A stretch of DNA of 64,000 bases from Candidatus Bathyarchaeota archaeon (GCA_963733055.1 CAVTBR010000001.1:32001-96000), one strand, 5' to 3'; positions 25,404 through 47,208 are shown, counted from the first letter of the stretch. Notes: generated from the letters alone by a model not told the origin. A program made the numbers and translations.

Positions 25404-25407
25404 AGGC

Positions 25408-28371: not shown

Positions 28372-28427
28372 ATAATCACCCCACCAGCCCGACATCATGA
28401 ATTCAAAACGCAGTACGCGTTTCATAA

Positions 28428-29381
28428 TTGAGACGGGATCTGGCCGTGCAGCAGAGAAGCAACAGGCACTCATTAGCCGTCTGGTACGTTGCGCTTAGGC
28501 CATTTACCTATCCGGCGTCAATCGTCCCCGTGCTTGTGGGTTCTGCCGTGGCTTGGTATAGGGGACACACGGATTTGGTTCTCTTTCTGCTCACCCTGTT
28601 CGGGTCCGTAGCGGTGCAGGCGGGAACGAACTTAGCCAACGAATATTTTGACTATGTGCAGGGAGTTGATAGAGCGGACTCTTTGGGTCCCGCCGGCGTA
28701 ATTCTTGGAGGAAAACTCAGACCAAGGCAAGTGCTCTGTGCAGCAATAGTGGCTTTTGGTTGTGGTACGATCGCTGGTGTGTATATAGCCGCGCAAGTTG
28801 GATGGATCATCCTAGTTCTCGGAGTAACGAGCGTTCTGGCAGCCTGGTTCTACACTGCGAAACCTCTCTCGCTGGGTTACAGGGGCCTTGGGGAGCTGGA
28901 GGTTTTCGTATTTATGGGTCCCGTCACGGTTCTCGCGAGCTATTACGTTCAAGCCAGAAGCCTCGCCTGGAGCCCCCTGCTGCTCTCTCTCCCCGTAGCT
29001 CTTCTAGTAACCGCCATTCTTCACGCTAACAACCTGCGAGACATTGTGCAAGACAACGAGCGACATCGAATTACTTGGGCAGTGCTGGCGTGTAGATCTT
29101 GGGGTATGGAGCGAGGCAGGATTTTTTCCCGTTTCGTCTATTGCGCGATGCTGGCGGGAGCCTATATGATCTTAACTGGACTTGTTGCGACACATGCCGC
29201 CCCTCTACCGACGCTCTTGACGTTCCTTACGATCCCGCAAGCATATTGGCTCATTCGGTTTGTGGCTTCGGGAGTCGAAGGCAAGGCACTCAGCCGCGCT
29301 GTTCGAGGCACGGCACGCCTCCAGATGTCATTTGGCGTGACATTGACTGTTGGGTACTTACTTGCTATGTTGATGCGCTAA
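28428..29381 (+). CDS. menA: 1,4-dihydroxy-2-naphthoate prenyltransferase
   Basis: RPFT, NEYFDYVQGVD, LGYRGLGE, ANNLRD; multiple TM helices. Confidence 0.92.
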   Translation: MRRDLAVQQRSNRHSLAVWYVALRPFTYPASIVPVLVGSAVAWYRGHTDLVLFLLTLFGSVAVQAGTNLANEYFDYVQGVDRADSLGPAGVILGGKLRPRQVLCAAIVAFGCGTIAGVYIAAQVGWIILVLGVTSVLAAWFYTAKPLSLGYRGLGELEVFVFMGPVTVLASYYVQARSLAWSPLLLSLPVALLVTAILHANNLRDIVQDNERHRITWAVLACRSWGMERGRIFSRFVYCAMLAGAYMILTGLVATHAAPLPTLLTFLTIPQAYWLIRFVASGVEGKALSRAVRGTARLQMSFGVTLTVGYLLAMLMR

Positions 29382-29612: not shown

Positions 29613-32279
29613 ATGGCCAGTATCGAGAAGATGCTAAACCCCAAGACAGTCGCGGTGATCGGGGCTTCTGAGAGCGAAGGATCGATTGGACAATCTCTGA
29701 CCAAGAACCTGTTGCTGGGAAGAGACCACAGGAAAATCTACCCCGTGAACGTAAACCGGGAAATGGTCATGGGCCTGAAGTGTTACCCATCAGTATCCAA
29801 GATACCAGAGCATGTCGACTTGGCTGTTATTGCCACTCCTGCAAGAACTGTTCCATCTATAGTGAGCGAATGTGCGAAGGCTGGCGTGGATGGCGCCGTT
29901 ATTGTTTCAGCGGGTTTCCGTGAAGTCGGAACGGCTGGGGCAAAGTTGGAGGATGAGATCAAGCAAATTCAATCGGCGCATGACATTCGAATACTAGGAC
30001 CAAACTGTGTGGGCGTGGCGAGACCGCAGATCGCCCTCAATGTCACATTCCTCCGAGACAACCCTCAACCAGGCCAGATCGCATTCATATCTCAGAGCGG
30101 CGCGCTAGGCTCTGCGATAGTAAACTGGGCCGTAAGTACAGGAATAGGGTTCAGCATTTTCGCTTCCCTGGGTTCTACACTGGACATCGATTACGGGGAC
30201 ATGATCGATTATCTTGGGGAGGACCCTAACACTAAGAGCATCATCGTTTACATGGAGGGCGTCGGAAACGCCAAGAAGTTCATGAGTTCGGCAAGAGGCT
30301 TTGCACGTACAAAACCGATTATCGTAATCAAAGCCGGAAGAAACGCCGCTGGCGCAAAGGCGGCTTCGTCGCATACCGGCGCACTTGCGGGTGACTTCGC
30401 CGTTTACGAAGCCGCCTTCAAGAGAGCTGGAGTTGTGATGGTTGATGAGATTGGAGACCTCTTCAACTGCGCTACCGTCTTGGACTCAAGGTTTCTTCCC
30501 GCGGGCCCGAACTTAGCCATCGTCACAAACGCCGGAGGGCCAGCGGTGCTAGCTGCTGACTCAGTCGTCACTCATGGCGGACAGCTGGCTCAGTTGTCCG
30601 ATGAGTCCATGAAAATATTGAATGGAGCCCTCCCGCCATACTGGAGCCGAGGAAACCCCCTTGACATACTAGGGGACTCTGATGTTTCTAGGTATGAGCT
30701 CGCTGTGAAAACGTGCATTGCGGATCCGAATGTCGATGGACTCCTTGTAATCTACACCCCTCAGGGAACGACTCAACCCACCCAACTTGCCGAAGCGGTT
30801 ACAAAAATCGCTGCAGACAGACGTAAGCCAATGCTTACGGTCTGGATGGGCGAGAGCAGCGTCAGAGAAGCCCGCGAGATATTCCATCGAAACGACATAC
30901 CTACTTACTCAACGCCTGAGGAAGCGGTGAAGACCTACGCATACATGTACCAATACCGACGAAACCTAGACCAACTCTACCAAACTCCCCAGGAACTACG
31001 CGTGGACTTCTCACCGCCCAAGAGCCATCTCAAACTCATGATCCGAAAGGCGGCGAAGACCCGAAAAGCCCTAACTCAACCCGAAGTAGATCGGTTCCTC
31101 GATGCCTACGGGATTCCAAGGGCAAAGGGATCCATAAGCAAAAGCGCGGACCAGGCGGCAATGATCGCCTTAGACATCGGTTTTCCGGTAGCGCTAAAGA
31201 TTTCTTCCGAGGACATTCTTCACAAAACAGACATTGGCGGAGTCGTCACCGGCCTTAGCTCAGCCCAAGCGGTCAAGGACGCGTATAAGGCAATTATCGA
31301 GAGGGCGCACAAAGCGAAACCTGAAGCTAAAGTCGACGGCGTCTACGTGCAAGAAATGGCATCTGCGATAGACTATGAACTTATCCTCGGCTCGAAAAAA
31401 GACAGAGACTTTGGATCGGTTATTCTATTCGGAATGGGCGGGACCGCAGTCGAACTCATTAACGATGTGTCGATCGGACTTGCGCCCCTGAATCAAATTC
31501 TGGCCCATCGAGTCATGGAAGAGACAAAAATCTACAGAGCTCTTACCAAAGGCCTTCGGAACAAGAAAGCCATAGACCTACAGCCCCTCGAAGAGATTAT
31601 GGTGCGATTCTCGAATCTGATTGTGGATTTTCCTGAAATTGCTGAAATGGACATCAACCCACTCATAGCTAACAACGGCAAATTCATCGCTCTCGATGCA
31701 AGAATGATAATCGACCCTAGCGCGCTCAGCCGGGCCGAAGCCTACCCACACCTAGTAATCACTCCCTATCCCTCTAAGTATGTTGTCCCATGGAGATTGA
31801 AGGACGGCACCGAGGTAACTCTGCGGCCCATAAAACCCGAAGATGAACCCATCGAACTTGAGTTCATACGGGGCTTGTCGACGGAAACGAGCCGATTCAG
31901 GTTCTTCCAAATAATCAAGGATCTACCACACGACGCCCTCGTCCGTTTCTGCAACATCGACTACGACAGGGAGATGGCCATCATCGCCGAAGCCCGAGAA
32001 GGAAATCGAACAGTGGAGATTGGAGTAAGCCGCCTAATTCTGGAACCCAACAAGAAACGGGGAGAATTCGCCGTCGTGGTTGCTGACAAGCATCAAAGAA
32101 AGGGGCTTGGGATTAAGCTGGTCGATATGCTGATTGATTTCGCTAAGGAGAAGGGCATTGAGACTATTTATGGAACGGTGATGGCGGAGAACATAGGTAT
32201 GATACGGCTCTGCGAGAAACTTGGCTTCTCCACTCGAAGAGAGCAGGAGAACACGATTGCAGAGCTAAAGCTAACCTGA
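29613..32279 (+). CDS. ADP-forming acyl-CoA synthetase-like/GNAT fusion (Pat/PatZ-type)
   Basis: CoA-binding N-terminus, GPNC, SQSGA, SHTGALAG, ATP-grasp HKTDIGGV, C-terminal GNAT (QRKGLG). Confidence 0.9.
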   Translation: MASIEKMLNPKTVAVIGASESEGSIGQSLTKNLLLGRDHRKIYPVNVNREMVMGLKCYPSVSKIPEHVDLAVIATPARTVPSIVSECAKAGVDGAVIVSAGFREVGTAGAKLEDEIKQIQSAHDIRILGPNCVGVARPQIALNVTFLRDNPQPGQIAFISQSGALGSAIVNWAVSTGIGFSIFASLGSTLDIDYGDMIDYLGEDPNTKSIIVYMEGVGNAKKFMSSARGFARTKPIIVIKAGRNAAGAKAASSHTGALAGDFAVYEAAFKRAGVVMVDEIGDLFNCATVLDSRFLPAGPNLAIVTNAGGPAVLAADSVVTHGGQLAQLSDESMKILNGALPPYWSRGNPLDILGDSDVSRYELAVKTCIADPNVDGLLVIYTPQGTTQPTQLAEAVTKIAADRRKPMLTVWMGESSVREAREIFHRNDIPTYSTPEEAVKTYAYMYQYRRNLDQLYQTPQELRVDFSPPKSHLKLMIRKAAKTRKALTQPEVDRFLDAYGIPRAKGSISKSADQAAMIALDIGFPVALKISSEDILHKTDIGGVVTGLSSAQAVKDAYKAIIERAHKAKPEAKVDGVYVQEMASAIDYELILGSKKDRDFGSVILFGMGGTAVELINDVSIGLAPLNQILAHRVMEETKIYRALTKGLRNKKAIDLQPLEEIMVRFSNLIVDFPEIAEMDINPLIANNGKFIALDARMIIDPSALSRAEAYPHLVITPYPSKYVVPWRLKDGTEVTLRPIKPEDEPIELEFIRGLSTETSRFRFFQIIKDLPHDALVRFCNIDYDREMAIIAEAREGNRTVEIGVSRLILEPNKKRGEFAVVVADKHQRKGLGIKLVDMLIDFAKEKGIETIYGTVMAENIGMIRLCEKLGFSTRREQENTIAELKLT

Positions 32280-32672: not shown

Positions 32673-32765
32673 TGGTGGGCCCGCCCGGATTTGAACCGGG
32701 GATCTTCGCCGGTCTCACTCAGGAGATGTGAGGGCGACGTCTTGGCCAGGCTGGACCACGAGCCC
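32673..32765 (-). tRNA. tRNA-Val(CAC) with 15-nt intron at 37/38 (32712-32726), encoded CCA
   Basis: GGGCTCG/CGGGCCC acceptor stem, GGTTCAAATCC T-loop, TCGCC/GGCGA anticodon stem, bulge-helix-bulge. Confidence 0.95.
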
Positions 32766-32927: not shown

Positions 32928-33956
32928 GTGCAAGCCGTAATTATCCAAGGGAAAGGAACGGTTCAGATTCAGAACCTCCCTACCCCTGCGATAAGTTCCG
33001 ACGAGATTCTCGTGTCAATGCGAGCGTGCGGGATCTGTGGGACTGATATCGAGAAGGTTCATGGCGAGCATATTACACCGCCAATTCTCGGACACGAAGT
33101 GGCCGGGGTAGTCGAGAGGGTTGGAACAGAGGTCCAAGAATTCGCTGTTGGTGACCGGGTTGTAGTACATCATCACGTATCGTGCAGCCACTGCTATTTC
33201 TGTAAGAATGGTCTCGAAACGCTTTGCGAGGAATATCCGAAAAGCAACCTCGACCCTTGCGGGTTTGCTGAGTATTTCAGGGTTCCAAAGGCACTTATGA
33301 AAGGCGGAACCGTGCACAAGTTGTCCGATTCCATGAGTTTTGAGGAAGGGTCACAGGCGGAACCCACTGCATGTTGCATCAGGGCGCTCCGTAAGTCAGG
33401 GGTATCGGCTGGGAATAGTGTCGCGATTTATGGTGTGGGCCCGGTTGGTCTGACCCATGTACAACTTCTGAAGTGTTTCGGGGGTGGACCTGTGTATGCA
33501 ATCGATGTGATCAAGAAGCGTAGGGAGTTCGCCACTAAGTTGGGCGCGGATTCGGCATTTGATCCTATGACAGACGATGTCCTTAATGCAATTTCCCATT
33601 TGACTGGAGGCCTTGGGGTCGATTACGCGATTGTTGCAACCGCCAACTTGAAAGCATTAGAATCAGCGTTTACCACAGTTCGTAAGGGTGGGACGGTTCT
33701 TCTGTTCGGTGCTCCTACACGGGGCGCATTGATGTCATTAGACATGAGTAAGATGTTTCTCCGAGAGGTGCGCTTTCAATCGAGTTACTCAACGTCCGAA
33801 ACTGAAATGCGAATGGCATTGCAACTAATCGAGAACAAACGTGTGAAACCATCCGTGACTATTACAGATAGGTTCCCTCTCTCTCGAGCAATAGAAGCGC
33901 TTGGGCTCGCGGACAAAGCCAGTGAGGCTGTCAAGATAGTAGTTGAGAATGAATGA
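32928..33956 (+). CDS. Zn-dependent polyol (MDR) dehydrogenase
   Basis: CGTD, GHE, CxxCxxC..C structural Zn, GVGPVG. Confidence 0.92.
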   Translation: MQAVIIQGKGTVQIQNLPTPAISSDEILVSMRACGICGTDIEKVHGEHITPPILGHEVAGVVERVGTEVQEFAVGDRVVVHHHVSCSHCYFCKNGLETLCEEYPKSNLDPCGFAEYFRVPKALMKGGTVHKLSDSMSFEEGSQAEPTACCIRALRKSGVSAGNSVAIYGVGPVGLTHVQLLKCFGGGPVYAIDVIKKRREFATKLGADSAFDPMTDDVLNAISHLTGGLGVDYAIVATANLKALESAFTTVRKGGTVLLFGAPTRGALMSLDMSKMFLREVRFQSSYSTSETEMRMALQLIENKRVKPSVTITDRFPLSRAIEALGLADKASEAVKIVVENE

Positions 33957-34017: not shown

Positions 34018-35080
34018 ATGGCAAATAGTATGCTCGCAGTTAGGTTCTACGAACCCGGCGTCCTCAAAGTGGAACAGGTACCCGTTCCTGAACCAGAGCC
34101 GGGAGAGTTGATTGTGAAAAGCGCGGTTGCGTTGACCTGCGGAACAGACGTTAAGATGTACAAACGCGGGCATCTGCTCGCCAAACCACCCCAAATCATG
34201 GGACATGAATTCGCCGGAACAGTGTCCGCGGTAGGAAAGGATGTCGCAAACTTTAGCGTTGGAATGAGAGTGGTCGCAGCAAACTCAGCGCCTTGCAATC
34301 AATGCTTCTACTGCCTCTTGCACCAACCCAACCTATGCGAGCATTTGAATGAAAGCTTAATTGGGTTCACCTGGCCGGGAACATACGCTGAGTACGTGAG
34401 GATTCCGGCGAGAATAGTTCGGCAAAACACGTTTCAAGTGCCGGATAGTGTGCCACTTGAGAGCGTAGCGAGTCTAGAACCTCTGGCGTGCGTAGTTCAT
34501 GGCTGGGATCTAGCCAAAGGGTTCCCTGCTGGAGGAACGGCAGTAATCATCGGTGGTGGACCAATCGGCCTCCTTCATGCCCAACTCGCGCGCCTCAACG
34601 GTGCACGTCATGTGGCATTGTGTGACGTCGTGTCAGATAGGTTGAAGGAGGCGGAGGGAGTAGGAGTGGACGTGACGATAAACTCGTCAACTGAGGATCT
34701 TGTAGCGAGGGTCCGTGAACTTACGGAGGGCAAGGGGGCTGACACGGTCGTAGAAGCGGTTGGTCGACGCAGAAACTTGGGACGCGGCTCCTGGTCTAGC
34801 CAGAAAGGGCGGGACCGTCTTGCTATTCGGAGGTTGCGCATCTGGAACCACCGCTTCGTTCGAAGCCGAGAAGATTCACTATGGGGAACTGCACATCCAA
34901 GGCTCATTCCACCACACACCTTCCTCGGTTGAACACGCCTTTCGGCTAATAGTGTCGGGGCGTGTATCGATCAAGCCACTGATTTCCCACGAGATGCCAC
35001 TAGAACGAGCTGAAGAAGCTCTACAACTTATGGGAAGCGGAAAGGCATTGAAAATTGCACTGCGCCCACCGGCAAAATAA
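34018..35080 (+). CDS. second Zn-dependent polyol dehydrogenase, +1 frameshift near 34768
   Basis: CGTD, GHE, GGGPIG in first ORF; C-terminus (RKGGTVLLFG...LKIAL) continues in another frame. Confidence 0.85.
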
Positions 35081-35118: not shown

Positions 35119-36285
35119 TTAGAGTAATCCTTCTGGCTCCTCTAGGTTACGTTTCACGTCCCTGAGGAACTTCGTGGCTGGGACGCCGTCGATAATCCGA
35201 TGATCGAAAACTAATGTCAATAGTGTCGATGGTCTCGCGGATACTTGACTTCCATTAGCGAATGGTTTGTAAGCTATCCGGCCGAGCCCGAGAATTGCAC
35301 ATTGGGGCGGGTTTATGACTGGTGCGAATGATTCGATGTCGAACCCACCGAGGTTGGTTACGGTGAATGTGCCGCCGGTCAGGTTCTCGATTGTTAGCCG
35401 ATTCTCACTGGCTTTCTTAGCGAGCTCCTCAATAGTCGAGCTAACCTCCCTTAGAGATAGTTTGTCAGCATTTCTGACGACCGGCGCCACTAAGCCCTGT
35501 TCGGTGTGTATCGCTACCGCGACGTTGACATCTGAGTAAGTTGTAACTTCGTCGCCTTCTATTGTTGAGTTGACATCATGGTGATCACCCAAAGCTTTTG
35601 CAACCGCCTTTACTCCGAAGGCCGTAAACCCAACGTGGCTCTGCTTTTCTTTCATCGCCATTAACTTCGTGGCGTCCGCTTCGACGGTGATTGTAACCGG
35701 GACGACGGTTCTCGCACTAAACGAGAGCCTTTCAGCGACAACCTTTCGGACGCCGGCAAGTTTCGTCTTCTTCATTATGGCCGGTTGGGGAATTCTTGAG
35801 ATCGTTTGGGGGGCCTGCGAGGAAGGGTCACCCTGTTTTGCGGCGAGGATGTCCTCCCGAGTTATTCGGCCCCCGGGGCCAGTTCCCTTTAGGGAGGTCA
35901 AGTCGAGACCGTATTCCTGGGCCAACCGGCGTGCGGCGGGGGATGCTACTACTCGGTCTGAGAGGGGTCCATGACTTGGCGTGGTTGAAGATGGTTCTGG
36001 TCTCGCTTGCTCGGTTCTAGCGGGCGACACTTGCCGAGTTGTTGTTGATCCAGGTTCTCCGATGATTGCGATTGGCTCGGCAACTTGGATGTCGGTCCCG
36101 ACGGTTGCTAGGATCTTGGTCAAGGGTCCGGTGTCGGGGGCTTCAACTTCGAAGGTGGTTTTCTCTCCTTCGACAACGAGTATGGGTTCCCCTTTCCTAA
36201 CCAACTCGCCTTCTTTCTTCAGCCATTCAACGATCTTGCCGGATTGCATTCCGGGATCGAGGCGCGGCATTACAACTTCGGTCAA
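35119..36285 (-). CDS. dihydrolipoamide acyltransferase E2
   Basis: Lipoyl domain (VEGEKTTFEVEAP), ASPAARRLA binding domain, DHRIIDG. Confidence 0.93.
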   Translation of the reverse strand: MTEVVMPRLDPGMQSGKIVEWLKKEGELVRKGEPILVVEGEKTTFEVEAPDTGPLTKILATVGTDIQVAEPIAIIGEPGSTTTRQVSPARTEQARPEPSSTTPSHGPLSDRVVASPAARRLAQEYGLDLTSLKGTGPGGRITREDILAAKQGDPSSQAPQTISRIPQPAIMKKTKLAGVRKVVAERLSFSARTVVPVTITVEADATKLMAMKEKQSHVGFTAFGVKAVAKALGDHHDVNSTIEGDEVTTYSDVNVAVAIHTEQGLVAPVVRNADKLSLREVSSTIEELAKKASENRLTIENLTGGTFTVTNLGGFDIESFAPVINPPQCAILGLGRIAYKPFANGSQVSARPSTLLTLVFDHRIIDGVPATKFLRDVKRNLEEPEGLL

Positions 36286-36291
36286 GATGGA

Positions 36292-37278
36292 TCACTTGCC
36301 CAGTAGGGTTTGGACGGCATGGATGACGCTTTCAGCGTTTGGCATGTATTGTTGCTCGAGGGGTGGGGAGAATGGGATTGGCATGTCTGGGCACGCGACT
36401 CGCGTAATTGGTGCGTCTAAATAGTCGAACGCGGTCTCGGTGATTGAAGCCGATATCTCCGCACCCACGCCACCTCTCTTTACATCGTCGGACGCGATAA
36501 CCAGTCTGGAAGTTCGCTTGACTGACTCAACGATCGTTTCAAGGTCGAGCGGCTGGATGGTTCTCACGTCTATGACTTCGGCTGAGATGCCCTTATCATC
36601 TAGTTTCTTCGCTGCTGCTAGGGATTCACCTACCATTCTCGAAACGCCTACGATCGTGACGTCGTCTCCTTTCTTTTTCACGGCTGCTTTTCCTAGAGGA
36701 GTTAGGTACTCCTCCTCGGGGACCGGTCCCTTTGTTCGGTAGAGTAGCCCACTCTCCACGAAGAGGACTGGGTTGGGATCTCGGATTGCTGACTTTAGCA
36801 GACCTTTAGCGTCGCTTGGGTCTGCGGGCAACGCCACTTTCAACCCCGGAGCCTGCAGAAACCAAGCGGGGGTGAATTGTGAGTGTTGCGATCCGTGTTG
36901 TCGGCCGAGGCTGTATTGGGTTCGCAAGACCATCGGAACCTGAAGCTGGCCTCCGCTCATGAAACGCATTTTTGCGGCTTGCGTAGACAATTGATCCATG
37001 CAAATCGGGAGGAAATCCATGTACATGATCTCCGCTACAGGCCTCATACCCGCCAGCGCCAAACCTACTGCCGCTCCAGTGATGGCGGCCTCGGAGATTG
37101 GGGTGTCTCTAACACGTTCGGGCCCGAATTCGTCGAGCAAACCCCTAGTAACCTTGTAGACACCGTTGAATACGCCGATTTCTTCCCCTAAGAGTATGAC
37201 GTTCGGATCTCGGATCATCTCTTCGCGGAGCGCTTCACGGAGGGCGTCGGCATATGTGAGTTCCTTCATCCGTATCAC
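36292..37278 (-). CDS. 2-oxoacid/acetoin dehydrogenase E1 beta
   Basis: DTPISE, RPVAEIM, QHSQ, DAKGLLKSAIRDPNPV. Confidence 0.93.
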   Translation of the reverse strand: MIRMKELTYADALREALREEMIRDPNVILLGEEIGVFNGVYKVTRGLLDEFGPERVRDTPISEAAITGAAVGLALAGMRPVAEIMYMDFLPICMDQLSTQAAKMRFMSGGQLQVPMVLRTQYSLGRQHGSQHSQFTPAWFLQAPGLKVALPADPSDAKGLLKSAIRDPNPVLFVESGLLYRTKGPVPEEEYLTPLGKAAVKKKGDDVTIVGVSRMVGESLAAAKKLDDKGISAEVIDVRTIQPLDLETIVESVKRTSRLVIASDDVKRGGVGAEISASITETAFDYLDAPITRVACPDMPIPFSPPLEQQYMPNAESVIHAVQTLLGK

Positions 37279-38294
37279 TTTGAGTAGACGTAGTTTCCGA
37301 TCTCGCTGAATGGTAACGGTGAACCTTGCATGGCGAACTTAACCGAGTCTTCGATTTCCTGTTGCGTTGCCCTGTCGACTTCTGCAACTTCCGCAGTTGT
37401 TATTATCTTCTGGTCTTGGAGACGCTTCTTGAATGTAAGAATGGGATCGCGTTCGAGCCATTTCGCGACTTCTTCTTTGGGGCGGTACTCTCCTTTGTCA
37501 TAAACGCCGTGGCCTTTCATCTTGTAAGTTAGGCATTCAAGGAACGTTGGGGTAGAGTCTCTGCGAGCTTTTTCGGCTGCTGACTTGGTCGCGGCGTATA
37601 CCGTCACAACATCATTTCCGTTGACAACTGTCGTTTCTATTCCGTAGGAGCGGGCTCGCTCGGCGATGCTTGGGCTTGATACGCTCTTCTTTACGTTGGT
37701 AGACATTCCGTACTGATTGTTCTCGCAGAACAGTAGAACAGGTAGCTTCCAAAGGGCGATGAGGTTTACGCCCTCGTGGAACTCGCCCGTGTTGCAGGCG
37801 CCGTCGCCGAAGAATGTGGCCGCAATCTGTTTCGTCTTCCTTTGCTTGAGGCCGAGTCCAATCCCCGCAGCAATTGGTATTCCGCTACCGACTATAGCTG
37901 TGGCGTAAATGGAGCCAGTTTTAGGGTAGATTGCAACGTGCATCGAGCCGCCTAACCCTTTGCAGTTACCAGTTGATTTTCCAAAGAGTTCTGCCATGCA
38001 GAGGTTGGATGGTACGTCCTTGGCCAAAGCGTGGCCGTGGCCACGGTAGGTGGTTACGGTTAGATCATTGGGCTGAAGAGCCATCATCGCGCCTGTCGCA
38101 ATCGCTTCCTGGCCTAGGTACAGGTGAGATGGTCCTATCAATAATCCTTTGACGATGAATAGTTCTTCGACTTTCTCCTCGAACTTTCTAATAATGAGCA
38201 TCTTCCTGAGCATTTCACGCAACAGGTCTTTCGTTAGACCGTACTTTGCGTAGTCGTTTTGCGGTACTTCTTGTACTTCGGTTATGGTCGCCAT
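37275..38294 (-). CDS. 2-oxoacid/acetoin dehydrogenase E1 alpha (TPP)
   Basis: HLYLGQEA, YRGHGH, GGSMH, GDGA...ENN TPP motif. Confidence 0.93.
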   Translation of the reverse strand: MATITEVQEVPQNDYAKYGLTKDLLREMLRKMLIIRKFEEKVEELFIVKGLLIGPSHLYLGQEAIATGAMMALQPNDLTVTTYRGHGHALAKDVPSNLCMAELFGKSTGNCKGLGGSMHVAIYPKTGSIYATAIVGSGIPIAAGIGLGLKQRKTKQIAATFFGDGACNTGEFHEGVNLIALWKLPVLLFCENNQYGMSTNVKKSVSSPSIAERARSYGIETTVVNGNDVVTVYAATKSAAEKARRDSTPTFLECLTYKMKGHGVYDKGEYRPKEEVAKWLERDPILTFKKRLQDQKIITTAEVAEVDRATQQEIEDSVKFAMQGSPLPFSEIGNYVYSK

Positions 38295-38407
38295 TTCTAT
38301 CTCAGCTGGTCAATATTTGCGGGCTGGTTCTTTAGCCATTCTCCGTTTCGGTTCGTTCAATCAATTTCAAGTTCGTGGATGGAACTCATTCTTGGCAGAT
38401 GTTCGTC

Positions 38408-39970
38408 CTATGCCCCGGCGGCTCGGAACATCGGCTGCACGAGACCTTCTTCCACCATCTCTAGCGAGTGCTTGTACACTTTGGACCACTGGGCGTACAA
38501 TTTCAGATATTTACCATGGGTGGTCTGGTTGGGTTCGAATGTTCGCTCCCATTTGACCATGCCCTTCGCGGTTTCTTTCAGGTTCGGAAATATTCCGACG
38601 CCCACTCCCGCGCATATTGCAGCGCCGAGAGCTGTGGATTCTTTGATGGTTGGAACCTTGACCGTGATTCCGAACACGTCTGATAGTATTTGGGGCCACA
38701 GGAAGCCTTTCGACGCTCCCCCGCAGAATACTACTTGTTTCATTTTTCGATGAGTGAGCGCTTGCAATATTTGCAGGTGACCCAACGCTACGTACGCCGC
38801 GCTCTCTTCAATCGCCCTGACGCATTCCTTCTTGCCAGATGCCTGAGGTTGGTTGATGTCGAATTGTAGGAAGGATGGGGAGGCATGAATCCATCTTCTA
38901 GCGTTCATTATGTCCGAGAAAATTGGAATGACGCCGTTTGACCCAGGTTCAACGTGTTCGGCCTGCCTTTCAAGCAAATAGTACGCATCAACCCCTTCCC
39001 GAGTCGCTATCTCCTTCTCTTGCTCGCAGAATGCGTCCCTGAACCATCGCATTGTCAACCCACATAGGAAACCTATCCCTTCGGTCATCCACATACCTTG
39101 AACTGCATGGCAAAGGGTGCGTAAGCGAATCTTTGGGTCTATGATCGGTTTCTCCGTGACTACTGTTTGTTGCCAGAACGTCCCGCCTATCGTCGCTGAA
39201 TCATACGGTTGAACCGCTGCTATGCCGATTAGGCCAAGCTGTGTGTCTGCCCCGCCTACCACTACGGGAGTTCTCGATTTGAAACCAGTCTCGGCGGCGG
39301 CCTCAGCGGTGACCTCCCCCAGCACCGTTCCTGGTTCCTTTACTTCCGGGAAAATACCTCTAGGCAAGGAACACCAATCGATGATCTCGTCCGACCAAGT
39401 TCTTTTCGAGAGTTGAAACAGATTTGAGCTTGAGCCAATCGAGGGATCGGTAGCGAATTTCCCTGACAGTTTCTGAAGAATCCAATCGCTTATCATAGTC
39501 ACGTGGGCAGTTTTCTTGAAGATCTCCGGCTCGTGCTTCTTTATCCAAAGGAATCTTGGCGGCGACGTAATCGCCTGCCAATCCCCAGCCCTAGAGTAGA
39601 TCTTCTTTGCTAGTCCTTTCTTGACCATATGAGTAACTTCGTTTCTCGCCCGCGAGTCGACGTTTGGGCATGCCCAGATCTCTTTGCCAGTTTCATCGTA
39701 GAGAACCATGCCCTCGCGCATGCTGGTCGCGCTAATGCCGCGAATTTCATCGGGTCGAATCTTAGCTTTGTCGATCGCCTCGTGTATTGATTCGCAGATA
39801 AGTGCCCAATTTCGTGCGGTCTCAAAGACAAAGGCGCCCGGATATTGCGGTATAGTAGGATGGACCCACTCTCTTGATGCGATGGCGACTTGATGCCCTT
39901 CGGAGTCAAAGATTACACATCTGCCGCTGCCAGTTCCCGCGTCTATTGCGGCTAGATAGTCGCCATTCAT
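38408..39970 (-). CDS. lsrK: autoinducer-2 kinase-like FGGY kinase
   Basis: DAGTGS.R.VIFD, SMREG.VLYD, IWACPNVDSRA, GGTFWQQ, WFRDAFC closely match enterobacterial LsrK as recalled. Confidence 0.8.
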   Translation of the reverse strand: MNGDYLAAIDAGTGSGRCVIFDSEGHQVAIASREWVHPTIPQYPGAFVFETARNWALICESIHEAIDKAKIRPDEIRGISATSMREGMVLYDETGKEIWACPNVDSRARNEVTHMVKKGLAKKIYSRAGDWQAITSPPRFLWIKKHEPEIFKKTAHVTMISDWILQKLSGKFATDPSIGSSSNLFQLSKRTWSDEIIDWCSLPRGIFPEVKEPGTVLGEVTAEAAAETGFKSRTPVVVGGADTQLGLIGIAAVQPYDSATIGGTFWQQTVVTEKPIIDPKIRLRTLCHAVQGMWMTEGIGFLCGLTMRWFRDAFCEQEKEIATREGVDAYYLLERQAEHVEPGSNGVIPIFSDIMNARRWIHASPSFLQFDINQPQASGKKECVRAIEESAAYVALGHLQILQALTHRKMKQVVFCGGASKGFLWPQILSDVFGITVKVPTIKESTALGAAICAGVGVGIFPNLKETAKGMVKWERTFEPNQTTHGKYLKLYAQWSKVYKHSLEMVEEGLVQPMFRAAGA

Positions 39971-39995
39971 GCTATCTCATGCCCGCGAGGAGGGG

Positions 39996-40634
39996 TCATT
40001 TTGCGGAGGGGTGCTGACCATATCTTGTCCGTTTGAAGACCTTCAGATATGCAAGTTCTTTTCTTGTGAACTCCCTAGGTTTCGCAAGAACCATTGAATG
40101 GACCGCCATGTTGGCAACATCTTCCAGCACTATTGCGGTCTCCAATCCTTCTTCAGGTGTCCTCCCTACAACAACCACCCCATGCTTTCTCAGGAGGGCG
40201 GCATCACATTTCTCTAACGCCTTCAGGATTGCAGCTAACTCGACAGGCTCCGTCGTGCCCGGAAGCGAGTACTTCCGTACTAGAGGTACGCTACCCCCAA
40301 GATAGAACGCCTGTTCCGCCGAAACACATGGAATCTCCATGTTGGCGGCGGCAAAAGCGCAAGCCATCGGCGAGTGCGTATGAATTACCGTACTAATTTC
40401 CGGTCGGTTCCGGTGAATGTAGGTATGCATCGCGGTTTCCACGGACGGCCTGAACTTTCCTTGGACAAGCTTGGCGTCGAGGTCCACAATGATGAGATGC
40501 TGAGTGTTGAGCGTGAGTTTGCTGAAACCACTGGGAGTGATTAGAGCGTAGTCTGTGTTAGGGATTCGGTTACTCACGACACCAAATGTTGACGTTACTA
40601 GATGGTTCTCAAAGAGCCCACGAGCTACTTCCAC
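39996..40634 (-). CDS. class II aldolase/epimerase (FucA/AraD family)
   Basis: ITPSG, PSVETAMH, HTHS, LRKHG; frame open upstream to a possible ACG start at 40697. Confidence 0.88.
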   Translation of the reverse strand: MEVARGLFENHLVTSTFGVVSNRIPNTDYALITPSGFSKLTLNTQHLIIVDLDAKLVQGKFRPSVETAMHTYIHRNRPEISTVIHTHSPMACAFAAANMEIPCVSAEQAFYLGGSVPLVRKYSLPGTTEPVELAAILKALEKCDAALLRKHGVVVVGRTPEEGLETAIVLEDVANMAVHSMVLAKPREFTRKELAYLKVFKRTRYGQHPSAK

Positions 40635-40756
40635 GGTTTTACTTGCGAGACTATCAATGATCTCTTGTTGAACGCCAGGTATGCTGAAGTCGGACGTCTG
40701 AAGTCACCTGGGTTTTGTGTTGTGCTCTTCCTGTTTGTATTGTCGACGGATGAATG

Positions 40757-41254
40757 TTAAGGGTAGGTGTAGATAGGATTCATAGAGATCGCGTGGCCGC
40801 TGACTGTTTCTGCAACCATCTTCAACACGGGTTCAGTATTCATGTAATAGAATCTGATGTTTTCACCAAGCCTTCCACTCATCATAACATCAACATCATT
40901 CTTCTTGAAGTCTGCGAGTGCCTTTTCAACATCCTCCGCGGGGCTCACTACGGAAACATGGTGCAGCCCTTCTCCCTTCTCTTCTAAGAACTCCTTGTAG
41001 ATACTTGGGCCCTCCAATGGTTGCAAAATTTCGAAGTCGATCGGGTCACAGTGGACTTCCGCCCCAAGCATAGAGTAATTGGCAGGTTTTCCGTGGAGTT
41101 CCTGATGGTGTAGGATTGGGGGTTTGTGTTCGTAAACACTCCAGGGCCCCCACCCGAGAATCTTGTGGTATGCTTCCATCGTTTTTCGCAAATCTTTCAC
41201 AACCACGGCAACTTGAGTAATCTTCATTCCAGACGGAACTGATGTGCCCATCAA
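40757..41254 (-). CDS. VOC family protein (methylmalonyl-CoA epimerase-like)
   Basis: QVAVVV, EILQPLEGPSIYKEFLEEKGEGLHH. Confidence 0.85.
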   Translation of the reverse strand: MMGTSVPSGMKITQVAVVVKDLRKTMEAYHKILGWGPWSVYEHKPPILHHQELHGKPANYSMLGAEVHCDPIDFEILQPLEGPSIYKEFLEEKGEGLHHVSVVSPAEDVEKALADFKKNDVDVMMSGRLGENIRFYYMNTEPVLKMVAETVSGHAISMNPIYTYP

Positions 41255-41309
41255 CTGTCATCTCGCAGAAGAAAGGGCAAGTCGCTTTGTATATTAGCCT
41301 TGGTCTACA

Positions 41310-42179
41310 TTGACGCCGTTCAGCGAGGACCAGTACTTGAAACGCGGAATCGCAGTCACAGGACGAGCAAACCCTAAGCTCATCGAAAGACTCGCCGTAG
41401 AGGCCGAAAGGGCCGAATACGATTATTTCTTGGTAACCGACCATTTCATGCTTCCAAACTCGAACAATCACATCGACGTTTGGTCCTTCCTCCCCTACCT
41501 TGCGGCGAAAACGGCCAAGATTAGACTGGGAACGGCAGTCACACCCCTCCCATTACGCCCGCCCGGCATGCTCGCAAAGATGGCCGCAACGACAGATTAT
41601 CTCTCCGGCGGCCGTTTGATAGTCGGGGTGGGGTTTGGGTGGTACCGGCCCGAATTTGAAGGGTATTCGAAATGGCATGAGAATAAGGAAAGGATAGCGT
41701 TCAGCATTGAAGCGCTGCGATTAATGAAACGCCTATGGACTGAACCGGGACTCGTGGATTTTCATGGCAAATATGTCCGCGCAAATAACGCAGCTCTAGA
41801 GCCTAAACCAATCCAGAAACCTTATCCACCAATATGGTGGGGCGGACACTTGGCAGTCTCGCTTCATACAGCGGGAAAGTATGCTGATGGATGGATGCCA
41901 ATAGGCCCTAGATGGTTTGACGAAAGCTACCCCAAACCTAACGAATACTCGCAAATGCGAAAGGTAATTCTCGACGAGTTGACCAAGCGCAAATATCCCG
42001 AAGAGAAATTTGCATTCACGAACCTCATCAACCGGACAGACATACAAACGCTCCGAAAGGATGTTGAACAGTACGTGGATGCGGGCATGAACCATTTCAC
42101 ATTGGGCGAGAAAGCGGAGGATGAAAAATGCTTGAAAGAGATAGCCCTCGTCGCGAAAGAAATAGGAGGCTCCTTCTAG
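41310..42179 (+). CDS. LLM-class flavin/F420-dependent oxidoreductase
   Basis: TDHF, LGTAVT, SGGRLIVGVGFGW, PKPIQKPYPPIW. Confidence 0.88.
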   Translation: MTPFSEDQYLKRGIAVTGRANPKLIERLAVEAERAEYDYFLVTDHFMLPNSNNHIDVWSFLPYLAAKTAKIRLGTAVTPLPLRPPGMLAKMAATTDYLSGGRLIVGVGFGWYRPEFEGYSKWHENKERIAFSIEALRLMKRLWTEPGLVDFHGKYVRANNAALEPKPIQKPYPPIWWGGHLAVSLHTAGKYADGWMPIGPRWFDESYPKPNEYSQMRKVILDELTKRKYPEEKFAFTNLINRTDIQTLRKDVEQYVDAGMNHFTLGEKAEDEKCLKEIALVAKEIGGSF

Positions 42180-42183
42180 GAAA

Positions 42184-43071
42184 TTGGCAAAACGCTCAGG
42201 CTGGAAGCTATCATTCATTCCTTACTACATGACGTCCCCAGCCGTTTGGACCTCACCCTCAACAGATGAAGCGATCCGTGTAATCTCGAAAGCAGGGTAT
42301 CAAGGCGTCGAATGGATGCTTGGTCAGCATTTCCGGAATACCAAGCAACTAAGGAACTTGGTCAACAAGACGAGGCGGCGCGGTCTTGCGGTCTCGAACA
42401 TCATGTGCTGGCAAGACCTCGTAACAAAGAGCCGGAAAGTCAGGAATAGACGAGTGAAGCTCCTGAATTGCATGCTGAGTGAGGCCAGCGGATTGTCCGT
42501 CCCTTTGATGAATGTCTTCACAGGGCCGATGACCTGGAATCCTGGCTACAATAGGATTGGTCGAGAAATCTCTGAAGGTCAAGCTTGGAAGGTTGTTATC
42601 GACTCATTTGCGGATCTTGTTGACTCGGCTGAGAAGAATCATGTCGTCGTCACAGTTGAGCCTGTATTCGGAATGCTCGTCCACGACTATTACACTGTAA
42701 AGGAGTTCCTCAGCTACTTCGATTCCAAATACTTGGGCGTGAACCTCGACCCATCCCACTTCGTCGTGTACGGAAACGACCCCGTATGGGCGGCGAAAAT
42801 GCTCGGCGAGAAAGTCCGACACGTTCATGTGAAGGATGCATTTGGGAAACCGGGCGGGCTTGGGGAAACTTTCGTCTTTCCGTTTCTTGGCGAGGGCGTT
42901 GTCGATTGGAAGGAGTTCTTTCTCGCTCTTCGCAAATCGCGATACCGTGGCTATCTCTCTCTCGAATTCGAGAATGATAGTTACCTGAACAATGTTTGCG
43001 ATGGGAAATGGTCAAAAGCAGCAGTAGAACTCAGGAATCGAGTTGAGAAGTTCCTGCCAAAACGGGCATAA
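42184..43071 (+). CDS. sugar phosphate isomerase/epimerase (xylose isomerase-like TIM barrel)
   Basis: VEP, NLDPSH, HVHVKD, GEGVVDW, SLEFE. Confidence 0.88.
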   Translation: MAKRSGWKLSFIPYYMTSPAVWTSPSTDEAIRVISKAGYQGVEWMLGQHFRNTKQLRNLVNKTRRRGLAVSNIMCWQDLVTKSRKVRNRRVKLLNCMLSEASGLSVPLMNVFTGPMTWNPGYNRIGREISEGQAWKVVIDSFADLVDSAEKNHVVVTVEPVFGMLVHDYYTVKEFLSYFDSKYLGVNLDPSHFVVYGNDPVWAAKMLGEKVRHVHVKDAFGKPGGLGETFVFPFLGEGVVDWKEFFLALRKSRYRGYLSLEFENDSYLNNVCDGKWSKAAVELRNRVEKFLPKRA

Positions 43072-43110
43072 GGAACCTTTGGGAACCATACCGCTGTGGA
43101 TCTGGCGAAG

Positions 43111-43401
43111 TTACAATCGCAGGATTAGTCGGATTAGGGCCACGACGGCTATGGCGCCCCAAACCACATTTAGAACACCATTCTGATACGCCCTCTTAAC
43201 GAATGCCACTAGGCCAAGCCCCACGGCGCCACTCAGGTTCAAGAACTGGTAGACGTAACTGTTTGGGGAAATGAAGCTCAAGCTCACGGTTCCGTAGGCG
43301 ACAACGACGGCTATCAAGCCATACCATCCCAAAATATCCACCAGTACCTGCCGTTTATGACCTACCTTAGCTGAATCCGCGGGAAGCATCTTTGATACCA
43401 C
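43111..43401 (-). CDS. small membrane protein (CBU_0592-like)
   Basis: DILGWYG, YQFLNL, 'LNVVWGAIA'. Confidence 0.7.
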   Translation of the reverse strand: MVSKMLPADSAKVGHKRQVLVDILGWYGLIAVVVAYGTVSLSFISPNSYVYQFLNLSGAVGLGLVAFVKRAYQNGVLNVVWGAIAVVALIRLILRL

Positions 43402-43590
43402 GACTGGCCTTAGAGCGATGTTCCGCCATAAAAGCGACCTGTCACACCGCGTAATTTAATCAGCTTGCGTTCTGTGCAATTCTGAAATGGGCGACCAAGA
43501 AATTCTTGGAGAGCGTCCGTTCGAGTTGGTATGCCAACCCGAAGCGGCCAATGAGTAGGCCGTTGGGGATTCTGGTGTCGTTTAGCTTGC

Positions 43591-43667
43591 TTATTCTGGG
43601 GATATCTCCATTTGTCCTCTGATTAAGTCGAGTCCTTTGCCTTTCAAGTTGAAGTAGCGTGCTAGAT
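43591..43667 (-). pseudogene. relic 3' end of an APC permease paralog
   Basis: LARYFNLKGKGLDLIRGQMEISPE* versus LARYFYFKGKGLDLIKGQMEIPPE* at 45419. Confidence 0.75.
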
Positions 43668-43834
43668 CAGGAAGCTGGAGCCTAATAGTCCTACAATGAA
43701 ACTGAAATCCGCAGTGGGTAAAGAGCTTGTTAGGGGATGCTTTCCCTAAAGAGCAGACACCTACCTGTGTGCGCAAACCTTCGATGACTTACCCTATGTT
43801 GAAAAACATCATATCTCGGTTTTGGTTCATATGA

Positions 43835-44725
43835 ATGCGTGAAGCGGAGTTGTCTGACCGCGTCATAGAGATGCCACCTGAGTGGGGAGGAGTCGTTCCC
43901 ACACGAGTTTTCTTAGATGAGGGTAAACGAATCGTGGACGAAGCCACGAGAGTAGGCATACCGTTAAGGTTGCTGGGTGGCGTTGCGATCCGGTATCATT
44001 GTATGGATTACCTAGACTTCGCGAAGAAACTTGGGCGTCAGGTTGGCGAGGGAGAGCAGGAGTACACCGATCTTGATTATATTTCCTACATGAAATACCG
44101 TGACAATGCAAAGAAACTCTTCGAAGCCTTAGGTTACTCAAGAAGGAAGACGACGTTATCAAGCTCCGCTACTCAACGGCAGATCTTCTTCCATCCTAAG
44201 GGATGGTTCCATGTGGACGTATTCTTCGACAAATTACTAGCCGCAAACCACCCCATAGATTTCAGAAAACGCCTTGAACTCGACTCACCCACCGCCACTC
44301 CCACCGATCTTCTCCTTGAGAAGGCGCAAATTGTTTTCCCGGGCGAGAAGGATGTCAAAGACATGATGCTACTTCTGCGCACTCACGAAATTTCCGCGCG
44401 CGAGGAAGAGAATAAGATAAGCGGGAAATTCATCGCACAGCTTCTATCTTCCGACTGGGGATTCTGGTACACACTTACAAATAATCTCCGCCAATTGAAA
44501 GAATACTCAACCACAATCGAACCACTGTCTACTGACGACAAGGCGGACCTAGCTTCGAAAGCAGACATTCTTTTGAAAATGATTGAGGATGAACCGAAGA
44601 GTACAGGTTGGAAGATGCGATCAGCCATCGGAACCAAAAAGAAGTGGTATAATCCCGTAGAGACCACACAAACGGTCGGAGAATTTGGCCTCTGGAAACT
44701 GAAAGAAAAAACCCAAGACTCTTAA
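43835..44725 (+). CDS. putative nucleotidyltransferase-fold protein
   Basis: LLGGVAI...YTDLDY (GG..DxD), HVDVFFD, KDVKD. Confidence 0.65.
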   Translation: MREAELSDRVIEMPPEWGGVVPTRVFLDEGKRIVDEATRVGIPLRLLGGVAIRYHCMDYLDFAKKLGRQVGEGEQEYTDLDYISYMKYRDNAKKLFEALGYSRRKTTLSSSATQRQIFFHPKGWFHVDVFFDKLLAANHPIDFRKRLELDSPTATPTDLLLEKAQIVFPGEKDVKDMMLLLRTHEISAREEENKISGKFIAQLLSSDWGFWYTLTNNLRQLKEYSTTIEPLSTDDKADLASKADILLKMIEDEPKSTGWKMRSAIGTKKKWYNPVETTQTVGEFGLWKLKEKTQDS

Positions 44726-44759
44726 GCGCAAAACGTGACTTGACCTCGAAACATCTTTA

Positions 44760-45143
44760 GTGATTAACGCCTTCAGGAAGGAAGCCCATGTCTTTCTTGA
44801 GAGTTTACGTCACCGTAAGTGGGCGCTGAGCTATTTAGTCGTCTTAACTTGTGTTAGCACCGTCATCTTCTCGTTTGTAGAGAATCATACCCCATTTGAT
44901 TCGTTTTACTGGACAATTACCGTATTTACAACCGTAGGCTTCGGAGACATAACACCCCACACAATAATTGGGAAGGTACTGTTTCTCTTCGATGCGATCT
45001 CAGGCATAACCACCTACATCTACCTAATCACCAGTTGGCAAACCTCAGTAATCGAAGCGAGACTTGAACGGAAACTATGGCAAATCGCCGACGCCGACTT
45101 CAAAGAACAGACACGAAAATCTAAGTCAAAATTCCAGAATTAG
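44760..45143 (+). CDS. two-TM potassium channel protein
   Basis: TTVGFGD selectivity filter. Confidence 0.88.
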   Translation: MINAFRKEAHVFLESLRHRKWALSYLVVLTCVSTVIFSFVENHTPFDSFYWTITVFTTVGFGDITPHTIIGKVLFLFDAISGITTYIYLITSWQTSVIEARLERKLWQIADADFKEQTRKSKSKFQN

Positions 45144-45418
45144 CCATTCACAAGAGTTTAGAGATGATCTTTAACCGCCAAAAGTAGAGGTCCCGACCTG
45201 TAACACCCAAAGTTAAGCCCCTAGAACGTAACAGTACCATTTCGATGCAAATACATCTCCCGCACCTTTACAGAAAGGAACCGCTACCGAATATTTGACA
45301 GACCCCGAAATGAACCGATTTTATCCACCCTCAGCCGTCGACCGAAGTATCCGTTACCGACTGTAGAGTGTTTGGAGCTTGGCGTTTGTTCAGGGACTTA
45401 TTGTCTCGATCTCTTGTC

Positions 45419-46996: not shown

Positions 46997-47208
46997 GGGA
47001 ATCTGAAAAGGTGGGTCTTCGAACGATATTTAACACTTGGCATGAAAGCGTCGGATTTCAAGGATCAAATTGAACGTTCGAGGGCTCGTAACTTGATTAA
47101 TATTCGATTTCTCATGGAGGGTTGAGGCAAAACCAATCTGCTAGTCAGAAAGGTCATGGTATGCGATCCTCGAAGAAGATTTTAGAATGAAGACCCGATG
47201 TCTCCCTT

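Follow-up and report, generated by a model that had tools for sequence, protein, structure and literature searches.

An LsrK-like kinase on an accessory island beside an E1/E2 dehydrogenase block in a soil Bathyarchaeia genome, and a putative oxidative route from a phosphorylated sugar to acetyl-CoA

The subject of this study is a 64,000-nucleotide stretch of DNA from Candidatus Bathyarchaeota archaeon (positions 32001-96000 of contig C1, CAVTBR010000001.1, in assembly GCA_963733055.1, here G000), referred to below as the window, in which a kinase of the LsrK type lies next to the E1 and E2 components of a thiamine- and lipoate-dependent dehydrogenase complex. The organism is a soil member of the Bathyarchaeia with an assembly of 2.88 Mb in three contigs. 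A first-pass annotation, made from the sequence alone, described a run of six genes on the minus strand, and all six open reading frames are confirmed, each with a strong family match. In the direction of transcription, they encode a VOC (glyoxalase-fold) protein (40757-41254; PF13669, 1.7e-12), a class II aldolase/epimerase-family protein, here called AldII (39996-40634; PF00596, 9.2e-42), an FGGY kinase (38408-39970; 668.7 bits to the 'autoinducer-2 kinase' model NF008187), E1alpha (37275-38294; PF00676, the E1_dh family, 2.6e-78) with the thiamine diphosphate motif GDG...NN, E1beta (36292-37278; PF02779, 1e-43, and PF02780, 6.2e-43) and the E2 dihydrolipoamide acyltransferase (35119-36285; PF00198, 1.8e-67, PF02817, 3.8e-18, and a lipoyl domain, 3e-15). 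E1alpha and E1beta overlap by 4 nt, and 6 nt separate E1beta from E2 and 25 nt AldII from the kinase; the spacers between the VOC gene and AldII and between the kinase and E1alpha measure 122 and 113 nt. The latter spacer contains an A/T-rich box about 20 nt before the E1alpha ATG. Sigma-70 and terminator scans of the locus gave nothing above shuffled controls, and such models are not applicable to archaea.

The locus is a composite of two parts with different histories. The first is a vertically inherited block of E1alpha, E1beta and E2 with two Zn-dependent alcohol dehydrogenases (ADH) convergent to it, ADH1 of the medium-chain type (32928-33956, plus strand) and ADH2 (34018-35080, plus strand). 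The second is a dispensable island directly upstream of E1alpha and in the same orientation. This structure becomes visible when the genomes of the genus are compared. Of 22 other genus genomes, 21 have an E1beta orthologue (78-97% identity) and 10 a kinase orthologue (70-93%), two of the latter being interrupted. The genus-level search found no kinase orthologue in 18 sampled genomes of other genera, and a wider sample of the Bathyarchaeia gave 8 of 301 genomes, representing 3 of 108 genera. In all ten kinase-bearing loci of the genus, both E1alpha and AldII adjoin the kinase, and the VOC gene is present in nine (the tenth contig begins within AldII); in two of the ten it has been relocated to the far side of E2, still in the cluster. 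Nine kinase-lacking loci of the genus were examined: E1alpha-E1beta is found in all nine and E2 in eight, most keep the two ADH genes and a Pat-like gene upstream of the block, and none has the kinase, AldII or the VOC gene. The E1/E2-ADH block also occurs in three other families of the order (L126-L128).

The boundaries of the island follow from one of the kinase-lacking loci (L118), in which the gene about 150 bp from E1alpha is a homologue of window 49856-50635, and behind it come MIP, methyltransferase and Thy1 genes as in the window. The window aligns with this E1alpha-proximal gene from position 49838 onward, and together with the occurrence of the block without the island in the kinase-lacking loci this defines 38295-49837 as an accessory island of about 11.5 kb, missing from the genus genomes without the kinase. 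In a joint tree of E1alpha and E1beta (28 rows, without L022 and L125, whose sequences were too short), the archaeal E1 genes, including those of kinase-lacking genomes from other families, form one clade (SH-aLRT 100), which points to vertical inheritance. The operon proposed at first is thus a contiguous set of genes on one strand, as described, and at the same time an accessory island docked onto an older operon, in which the E1/E2 block is not specific to the kinase.

The remaining genes of the island lie beyond the VOC gene. Divergent from it is a luciferase-like (LLM; F420/FMN-type) oxidoreductase (41310-42179, plus strand; TIGR03619 at 162.2 bits, below the cut-off of 166.9), followed by a xylose-isomerase-like TIM-barrel protein of the sugar isomerase/epimerase type (42184-43071, plus strand; family match), an APC-family permease (45419-46996, minus strand; family match), a short-chain dehydrogenase (SDR; 47209-47970, plus strand), a pyridoxal phosphate (PLP) enzyme of the D-serine dehydratase/D-threonine aldolase type (48050-49222, plus strand) and, at the edge, a second VOC-family gene (49264-49743, minus strand). 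No repeats were found at the island boundaries. The sole long repeat is a 103-nt direct repeat (79% identity; 43565-43667 and 45393-45495), which encloses a hypothetical gene (43835-44725) together with the gene of a small K+ channel (44760-45143). In close relatives, neither of the two is present between the TIM-barrel gene and the permease, and the segment appears to be a secondary insertion by which the 3' end of the permease was duplicated. Elsewhere in the genus, contigs C2, C3 and C16 of one assembly (G013) carry several kinase copies broken by TGA and TAG stops along with duplicated pieces of E1beta, which are either decaying copies or the product of a mixed assembly.

The kinase belongs to the LsrK family. 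It matches the NCBIfam equivalog NF008187 over its full length (residues 3-519 on model positions 3-520) far above the cut-off of 528 bits, and the runner-up model, XylB, reaches 220.5 bits. Among solved structures, Escherichia coli LsrK (5ya0) aligns end to end at 514 bits, with glycerol kinase next at 134 bits, and the identity to E. coli LsrK is 45.6% over 518 residues. These values exclude a xylulo- or ribulokinase, and the possibility of a mis-called xylulo-, ribulo- or glycerol kinase was rejected, since the models of those families score between 78 and 220 bits. The first-pass annotation expected phylogeny to place the kinase in the LsrK clade, and this holds at the level of the family and not at the level of the clade. 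Kinases with a canonical lsr context (lsrR, lsrACDB, lsrF) were gathered from E. coli K-12, from 4 of 81 genomes searched in the family of G041 and from 7 of 251 in the class of G042. A careful tree was built with 43 rows, a hand-chosen subset of about 100 sequences. In it, ten canonical-context kinases (E. coli, three from the family of G041 and six from Anaerolineae) form one clade (ultrafast bootstrap 99, SH-aLRT 96), and the remaining 30 environmental rows, including the window, form its sister clade (100/99). Quick trees of 91 and 56 rows give the same grouping. The separation places the window kinase, LsrK-like by model, outside the clade that is tied to autoinducer-2 (AI-2) import. The accessible portion of PMC8028047 gives no defined set of residues binding 4,5-dihydroxy-2,3-pentanedione (DPD) that could serve for comparison.

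The environmental clade has its own conserved partners. A search for related loci returned 590 confirmed relatives, of which the best 80 were taken; two (L023 and L024) were dropped as redundant with the genus loci. Neighbours within 8 kb of the kinase were then counted in the best 78 non-genus loci by tblastn with the window genes and cluster representatives. Such neighbours include a phosphoglycerate dehydrogenase (PGDH)-like D-2-hydroxyacid dehydrogenase in 61 of the 78 loci, a VOC protein in 59, an LsrF-model protein in 51 (the representative scores 467 bits against a cut-off of 297), a D-serine-dehydratase-like PLP enzyme in 45 and an Rpe-like epimerase in 35. An APC permease and a SorC/LsrR-type regulator are each present in 31 loci, a cyclase-family hydrolase in 29, E1alpha together with E1beta in 5 and an LsrB-like binding protein in 1. 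Restricted to the 54 loci that reach 5 kb or more to either side, the counts are 45 for VOC, 44 for the dehydrogenase, 37 for LsrF and 4 for E1. VOC matches occur in 72 of 91 environmental-clade loci versus none of 11 canonical lsr loci. From these counts, the core of the environmental clade is the kinase with the VOC protein, and its usual exit is the dehydrogenase with LsrF. None of the PGDH-like dehydrogenase, LsrF and the Rpe-like epimerase is found in the window. The record titles of two loci disagree with their content and are probably binning or labelling errors: L024 is titled an Acidiferrales bacterium and has the archaeal gene order of the genus at 72-87% identity, and L071 is titled Nitrosopolaris and its kinase groups with Chloroflexota kinases.

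This environmental cluster, uncharacterised and defined here, is carried by soil Chloroflexota, Actinomycetota and Nitrososphaerota, and shares with the window the kinase clade, the VOC protein, the APC permease, the PLP enzyme and the SDR. The Nitrososphaerota islands additionally share the LLM and TIM-barrel genes, and the identities to the window proteins are 78-81% for VOC, 65% for the TIM-barrel protein, 60% for the LLM oxidoreductase (the latter two from L072) and 56-74% for the APC permease, which adjoins the kinase cluster both there and in the genus. The difference lies in the exit, as the Nitrososphaerota islands hold the PGDH-like dehydrogenase and LsrF, and the environmental cluster often an Rpe-like epimerase, where the window has AldII and the adjacent E1/E2.

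The linkage of the kinase to E1alpha, E1beta and mostly E2, for which a synteny survey had been suggested, recurs outside the genus at four loci. In an Anaerolineaceae genome (L077), the order is kinase-AldII-E1alpha-E1beta-E2 followed by a phosphoglycerate-mutase-like gene, with gaps of 13-91 nt. In a cultured Pseudogracilibacillus of the Bacillota (L058), a fused double VOC gene and the kinase are followed by a sugar ABC transporter, AldII, E1alpha, E1beta, E2 and E3. In an unclassified bacterium (L090), the kinase is convergent with E1alpha-E1beta-VOC. In another Bathyarchaeia genus (L027), a PLP enzyme, AldII and the kinase are convergent with E1alpha-E1beta-E2, so that the junction lies on the E2 side, opposite to that of the window genus. 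Because the archaeal E1 genes are vertical and the junctions opposite, the genus and L027 look like separate dockings. Altogether, five lineages from three phyla have E1alpha and E1beta at no more than about 5 kb from a kinase of this type, in three different junction geometries. In the unclassified bacterium, two glycyl-radical enzymes and an activase (L090:4544-9090 and 15227-16741) flank the kinase and the E1alpha-E1beta-VOC genes.

In the genomes with this linkage, no LsrF over the model cut-off was found. Near the kinase, LsrF is absent from 4 of the 5 loci with E1alpha and E1beta versus 23 of the 73 without E1. At the level of the genome, no protein passes the cut-off of 297 of the LsrF model NF006081 in the 2.88 Mb assembly of the window (best 179 bits), in any of the four genomes of L058, L077, L090 and L027, or in four more kinase-holding Bathyarchaeia genomes (G002, G008, G227 and G268). 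The genome of the Nitrososphaerota locus L072, used as a positive control, gave 383 bits. The proposal of a route without LsrF and LsrG is consistent with the window genome, and it does not extend to the clade, in which the LsrF route is the rule. A literature search found no report of LsrK-type kinases linked to genes of acetoin or 2-oxoacid dehydrogenases, no description of this cluster and nothing on deoxyxylulose catabolism by a dehydrogenase complex of this type.

The E1/E2 complex resembles both acetoin dehydrogenase (AcoA/AcoB/AcoC/AcoL) and pyruvate dehydrogenase (PDH). Like the former, it has E1alpha and E1beta of the heterotetramer type and an E2 with lipoyl, E3-binding and catalytic domains, the last with the motif DHRIIDG. 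A further likeness lies in the neighbouring ADH genes, present at 8 of the 9 kinase-bearing genus loci that could be evaluated and at most of the kinase-lacking ones. E1alpha scores 348.4 bits to the PDH model TIGR03182, below the cut-off of 393.85, and its nearest solved structure is the mitochondrial-type PDH E1alpha 1ni4 (198 bits). E1beta passes the PDH E1beta subfamily model NF006667 (384.1 bits, cut-off 321) and stays below the equivalog NF008854 (386.8 against 454), and E2 reaches none of the NCBIfam equivalog cut-offs (its best score is 282.3 bits, with 449 required). By solved structures, PDH ranks above branched-chain 2-oxoacid dehydrogenase for E1, and no acetoin-specific model is among the NCBIfam hits, so the complex is best described as acetoin- or pyruvate-dehydrogenase-like, with the acetoin assignment suggested by context only.

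Unlike the acetoin system, the window cluster has no E3. The E3 gene that was to be located is present outside the window, at C1:814832-816196, about 745 kb from the cluster; it is the sole E3 over the cut-off in the genome (571.7 bits) and lies near the genome's other 2-oxoacid dehydrogenase set (C1:809231-812462), from which the E1/E2 of the window must borrow it. The genome also has a lipoate-ligase-like gene. A recent duplication of the other complex as the source of the window E1/E2 was rejected, as the identity between the two sets is only 33% for E1alpha, 48% for E1beta and 32% for E2. On the far side of the ADH genes, the window encodes an 888-aa protein (29613-32279) in which an NDP-forming acyl-CoA synthetase-like region is fused to a C-terminal GNAT domain, the architecture of Pat-type protein lysine acetyltransferases; this Pat-like gene is kept beside the ADH/E1/E2 block in many genus genomes.

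The two small enzymes of the island are less easily assigned. AldII passes no curated cut-off: it reaches 161.1 bits with the AraD model NF005123 (cut-off 251), and the FucA models are likewise below their cut-offs. It keeps three Zn-binding histidines and the FucA-type Glu (Glu73). At the AraD positions Asn28, Lys42, Asp76, Thr116 and Asp120 it has Val, Thr, Glu, Ala and Phe, and at the FucA positions Tyr113, Asn29 and Ser72 it has Ala, Val and Val, so the protein fits neither residue pattern. The kinase-adjacent AldII proteins of bacteria (L058, L077 and L074) keep the AraD Asn, Lys, Asp and Thr and are AraD-like. In the window (40634-40706), the ancestral AldII start about 21 codons upstream (near 40697) reads ACG (Thr) where the orthologues have Met (ATG). 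The first ATG, GTG or TTG is the GTG at 40634, and a start there would remove most of the first helix. The VOC protein has the His, Glu and Gln residues that characterise metal-binding VOC enzymes, with a conservation of 95% or more among 64 sequences, and this set fits a putative metal-dependent isomerase or epimerase. Its nearest solved structure is an uncharacterised structural-genomics entry (3gm5, 54.6 bits), and the protein atlas gave only generic VOC clusters for its function.

In the established chemistry, LsrG and LsrF convert phosphorylated DPD to acetyl-CoA and dihydroxyacetone phosphate (DHAP), and acetoin dehydrogenase cleaves a CH3-CO-CH(OH)-R compound to acetyl-CoA and an aldehyde. 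From the gene content, a pathway can be proposed for which the substrate, the order of the steps and the use of E1/E2 are what we infer. A small C5 methyl-ketone or diketone sugar, such as a 1-deoxypentulose or a DPD-like compound, would be imported or generated in the cell. It would be isomerised or epimerised by the VOC protein and the aldolase-family enzyme and phosphorylated at its terminal hydroxyl by the kinase. The CH3-CO-C(OH) head would then be cleaved, giving acetyl-CoA and a triose phosphate or phosphoglycerate. In most bacteria of the clade, this cleavage would be the task of the PGDH-like dehydrogenase and the LsrF thiolase, and in the organisms without LsrF, as in the window, the neighbouring E1/E2 would perform it oxidatively in a reaction of the acetoin-dehydrogenase type. 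Because neither variant would do without the VOC protein, its step should precede the branch. In this scheme, the bacterial AraD-like AldII and the Rpe-like enzymes would serve as epimerases that funnel stereoisomers into the pathway.

Among the candidate substrates, 1-deoxypentulose-5-phosphate would fit both exits. Its oxidation next to the CH2OP group by the PGDH-like enzyme would yield the LsrF substrate 3-hydroxy-2,4-pentanedione-5-phosphate, and an acetoin-type E1 could split its CH3-CO-CH(OH)-R unit into an acetyl unit and glyceraldehyde-3-phosphate, by analogy with the cleavage of acetoin, the substrate being in this case a phosphorylated C5 compound and not acetoin. Alternatively, hydrated phospho-DPD would give acetyl-CoA and 3-phosphoglycerate. 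Both exits would have the same net yield of an acyl-CoA and NADH. The first-pass annotation offered AI-2 or a deoxypentulose as the substrate, and of these the deoxypentulose fits the gene content better, both being candidates. The imported compound may be an amino conjugate, to judge from the co-conserved APC permease, PLP enzyme and cyclase-family hydrolase.

The reading favoured here is that the E1/E2 complex replaces LsrF as the acetyl-CoA-releasing step, acting on a DPD-like or 1-deoxypentulose-like phosphate in a pathway encoded on a dispensable island; it is offered tentatively, with a probability slightly short of even. Several observations weigh against it. The E1/E2 block is independent of the kinase, as orthologous E1beta genes (78-89%) with ADH neighbours are present in kinase-lacking genomes of the genus. 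On the E1 tree, the presence of the kinase changes at least four times within the genus, and no change in E1 branch length accompanies its gain or loss. A single ancestral insertion can explain the conservation within the genus, and E1alpha may have kept its own promoter, given the A/T-rich box in the 113-nt spacer. The kinases linked to E1 are grouped toward the base of the clade, so that they do not represent fully independent events, and a 334-nt gap lies between AldII and E1alpha in the Pseudogracilibacillus locus. In L141, from the sister genus, the neighbours of the kinase are VOC, a cyclase-family gene and DhaK; no E1/E2 lies within 6 kb downstream, and an E1beta orthologue (74%) is on another contig. 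The archaeal AldII is not of the AraD-like kind seen in the bacterial loci, and a single role may not fit both. In this assembly, moreover, the AldII start codon is lost and ADH2 is frameshifted, and no complex of the 2-oxoacid dehydrogenase type is known to us to act on a sugar phosphate, with no search aimed at this point.

The main rival reading is that the adjacency is historical or its meaning only indirect. The island would then be a self-contained sugar pathway in which the kinase, AldII, the TIM-barrel isomerase and the VOC protein lead to DHAP or xylulose-5-phosphate, as in the FucK/FucA or LyxK/SgbU/SgbE schemes, and E1/E2-ADH an ordinary pyruvate or acetoin/butanediol dehydrogenase, acting at most downstream, for example on pyruvate derived from the triose phosphate. 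Textbook pentulose or deoxyhexulose modules combine an FGGY kinase, a class II aldolase or epimerase and a TIM-barrel epimerase, and the window resembles FucK/FucA, AraB/AraD and LyxK/SgbE in the 25-nt spacing of kinase and AldII, in the Zn histidines and in the TIM-barrel isomerase/epimerase of the island; it differs from them in the kinase, which is LsrK-like and not FucK-, AraB- or LyxK-like. The constancy of the block in all nine kinase-lacking genus genomes examined and in L126-L128, while the island was lost or gained at least four times, agrees with such a division, as do the PDH-like features of E1alpha and E1beta, the separate kinase of L141 and the phosphoglycerate-mutase-like gene at the end of the Anaerolineaceae operon, which fits general lower glycolysis. 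It is harder to reconcile with the repeated appearance of E1 near this kinase type in different phyla and junctions, with the lack of LsrF in all E1-linked genomes, compared with its place beside the kinase in most loci of the clade, with E1alpha and E2 scores below the PDH cut-off and all cut-offs, respectively, and with an AldII that fits neither the FucA nor the AraD residue pattern. A historical or indirect adjacency is given a substantial share of belief and is still judged doubtful.

The other alternative is true scavenging or quenching of AI-2, in which bacterial DPD is imported, the kinase traps it as phospho-DPD, the VOC protein stands in for LsrG and E1/E2 splits the product. The kinase, a full-length homologue of E. 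coli LsrK at 45.6% identity, passes the curated AI-2 kinase equivalog, its relatives are linked to proteins well above the LsrF cut-off, and the expected end products, acetyl-CoA and triose phosphate, are those of the canonical Lsr system of E. coli and Salmonella (LsrK, LsrG, LsrF, LsrACDB, LsrR). Enediol-type isomerisations of dicarbonyls are known from VOC enzymes such as glyoxalase I, so a VOC protein in place of LsrG is chemically plausible, and since LuxS was not found in the genome, any DPD would come from outside. The rest of the system was not found, however. The absence of lsrF, lsrG, lsrR and lsrACDB, noted at first for the window, holds for the whole assembly: tblastn with E. coli queries gave no match to LsrR, LsrB, LsrC, LsrD or LsrG, only generic ABC ATPase matches to LsrA (25% identity) and only class-I-aldolase-like matches to LsrF (31-33%). 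With the E. coli LsrG query, neither the environmental nor the 11 canonical loci gave a match; the absence of LsrG is therefore of little weight and was not used as evidence that the VOC protein replaces it.

Further points separate the window from AI-2 processing. The kinase stands outside the clade with lsrR, lsrACDB and lsrF context, the VOC protein is a constant partner only on its own side of that split, the transporter of the island is an APC permease, and E1/E2 occupies the place that LsrF has elsewhere. The Pseudogracilibacillus locus is the only one in the environmental clade with a sugar-binding protein beside the kinase. According to the criteria of Pereira 2009, as quoted in PMC6166536, AI-2 receptors carry K35, D116, D166, Q167, P220 and A222, and D166 is reported in PMC6166536 as required. 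The Pseudogracilibacillus protein keeps two of the six (K35 and A222, in an alignment at 23% identity) and lacks D166, whereas E. coli LsrB, the control, shows all six in the same numbering. The PGDH-like dehydrogenase and the Rpe-like epimerase have no role in the known phospho-DPD route, and from their frequency near the kinases the substrate would be more reduced. The co-conservation of the PLP enzyme, cyclase-family hydrolase and APC permease suggests that an amino compound is imported. AI-2 scavenging is thus considered quite improbable, and the initial idea of an archaeon consuming a bacterial quorum signal finds no support, as no gene for AI-2 import, regulation or synthesis was found in the genome; uptake or quenching of AI-2 is possible but unsupported.

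If E1/E2 does replace LsrF, a broader model can be formulated. Recruitment of E1/E2(/E3) complexes would have occurred several times, their new task being to split a phosphorylated C5 methyl-ketone sugar, either 1-deoxypentulose-5-phosphate to acetyl-CoA and glyceraldehyde-3-phosphate, in a reverse-DXS-like reaction, or hydrated phospho-DPD to acetyl-CoA and 3-phosphoglycerate. The kinase-VOC pair would mark a widespread and undescribed catabolic pathway of soils, with the VOC protein as an analogue of LsrG, and the archaea that carry it could consume DPD-type molecules of bacteria. In this full form, the model is unlikely. If the coupling of the kinase pathway to E1/E2 holds, sugar phosphates would become a new substrate class for thiamine/lipoate dehydrogenase complexes, and LsrK-type pathways would gain a second, oxidative exit. 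The cultured Pseudogracilibacillus, with its full kinase-AldII-E1-E2-E3 operon, offers a testable system.

Databases already carry the label 'autoinducer-2 kinase' on these archaeal genes, and surveys then take such labels for quorum-sensing capacity. The present results show that behind the label stands a separate clade with its own conserved partners and without AI-2 import genes. In its accessible part, a metagenomic survey that counts lsr genes in archaea leaves this split unaddressed (PMC12781772).

Several other features of the genome were observed. In ADH2, the alignment with the L118 orthologue runs in frame 1 as far as 34818 and in frame 2 over 34772-35071, which places the frameshift of this assembly near 34772-34818 and makes the gene either a pseudogene or an assembly error. 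Outside the window, G000:C1:181007-203626 holds a second sugar-type cluster with a DhaK homologue, a class II aldolase paralogue (36%) and an FGGY paralogue; it also contains an orthologue (65%) of the cyclase-family gene, which in close relatives sits within the kinase island. Within the window, 22162-29381 encodes a chorismate-binding enzyme, a MenD-like thiamine diphosphate enzyme, a family III CoA-transferase, a MenB-like protein of the enoyl-CoA hydratase family and a UbiA prenyltransferase, and resembles a cluster for the biosynthesis of a menaquinone-type quinone, here in a genome of the Bathyarchaeia. Finally, the tRNA-Gly(CCC) gene at 32673-32765 measures 93 nt against a model of 71 positions and probably contains an intron.

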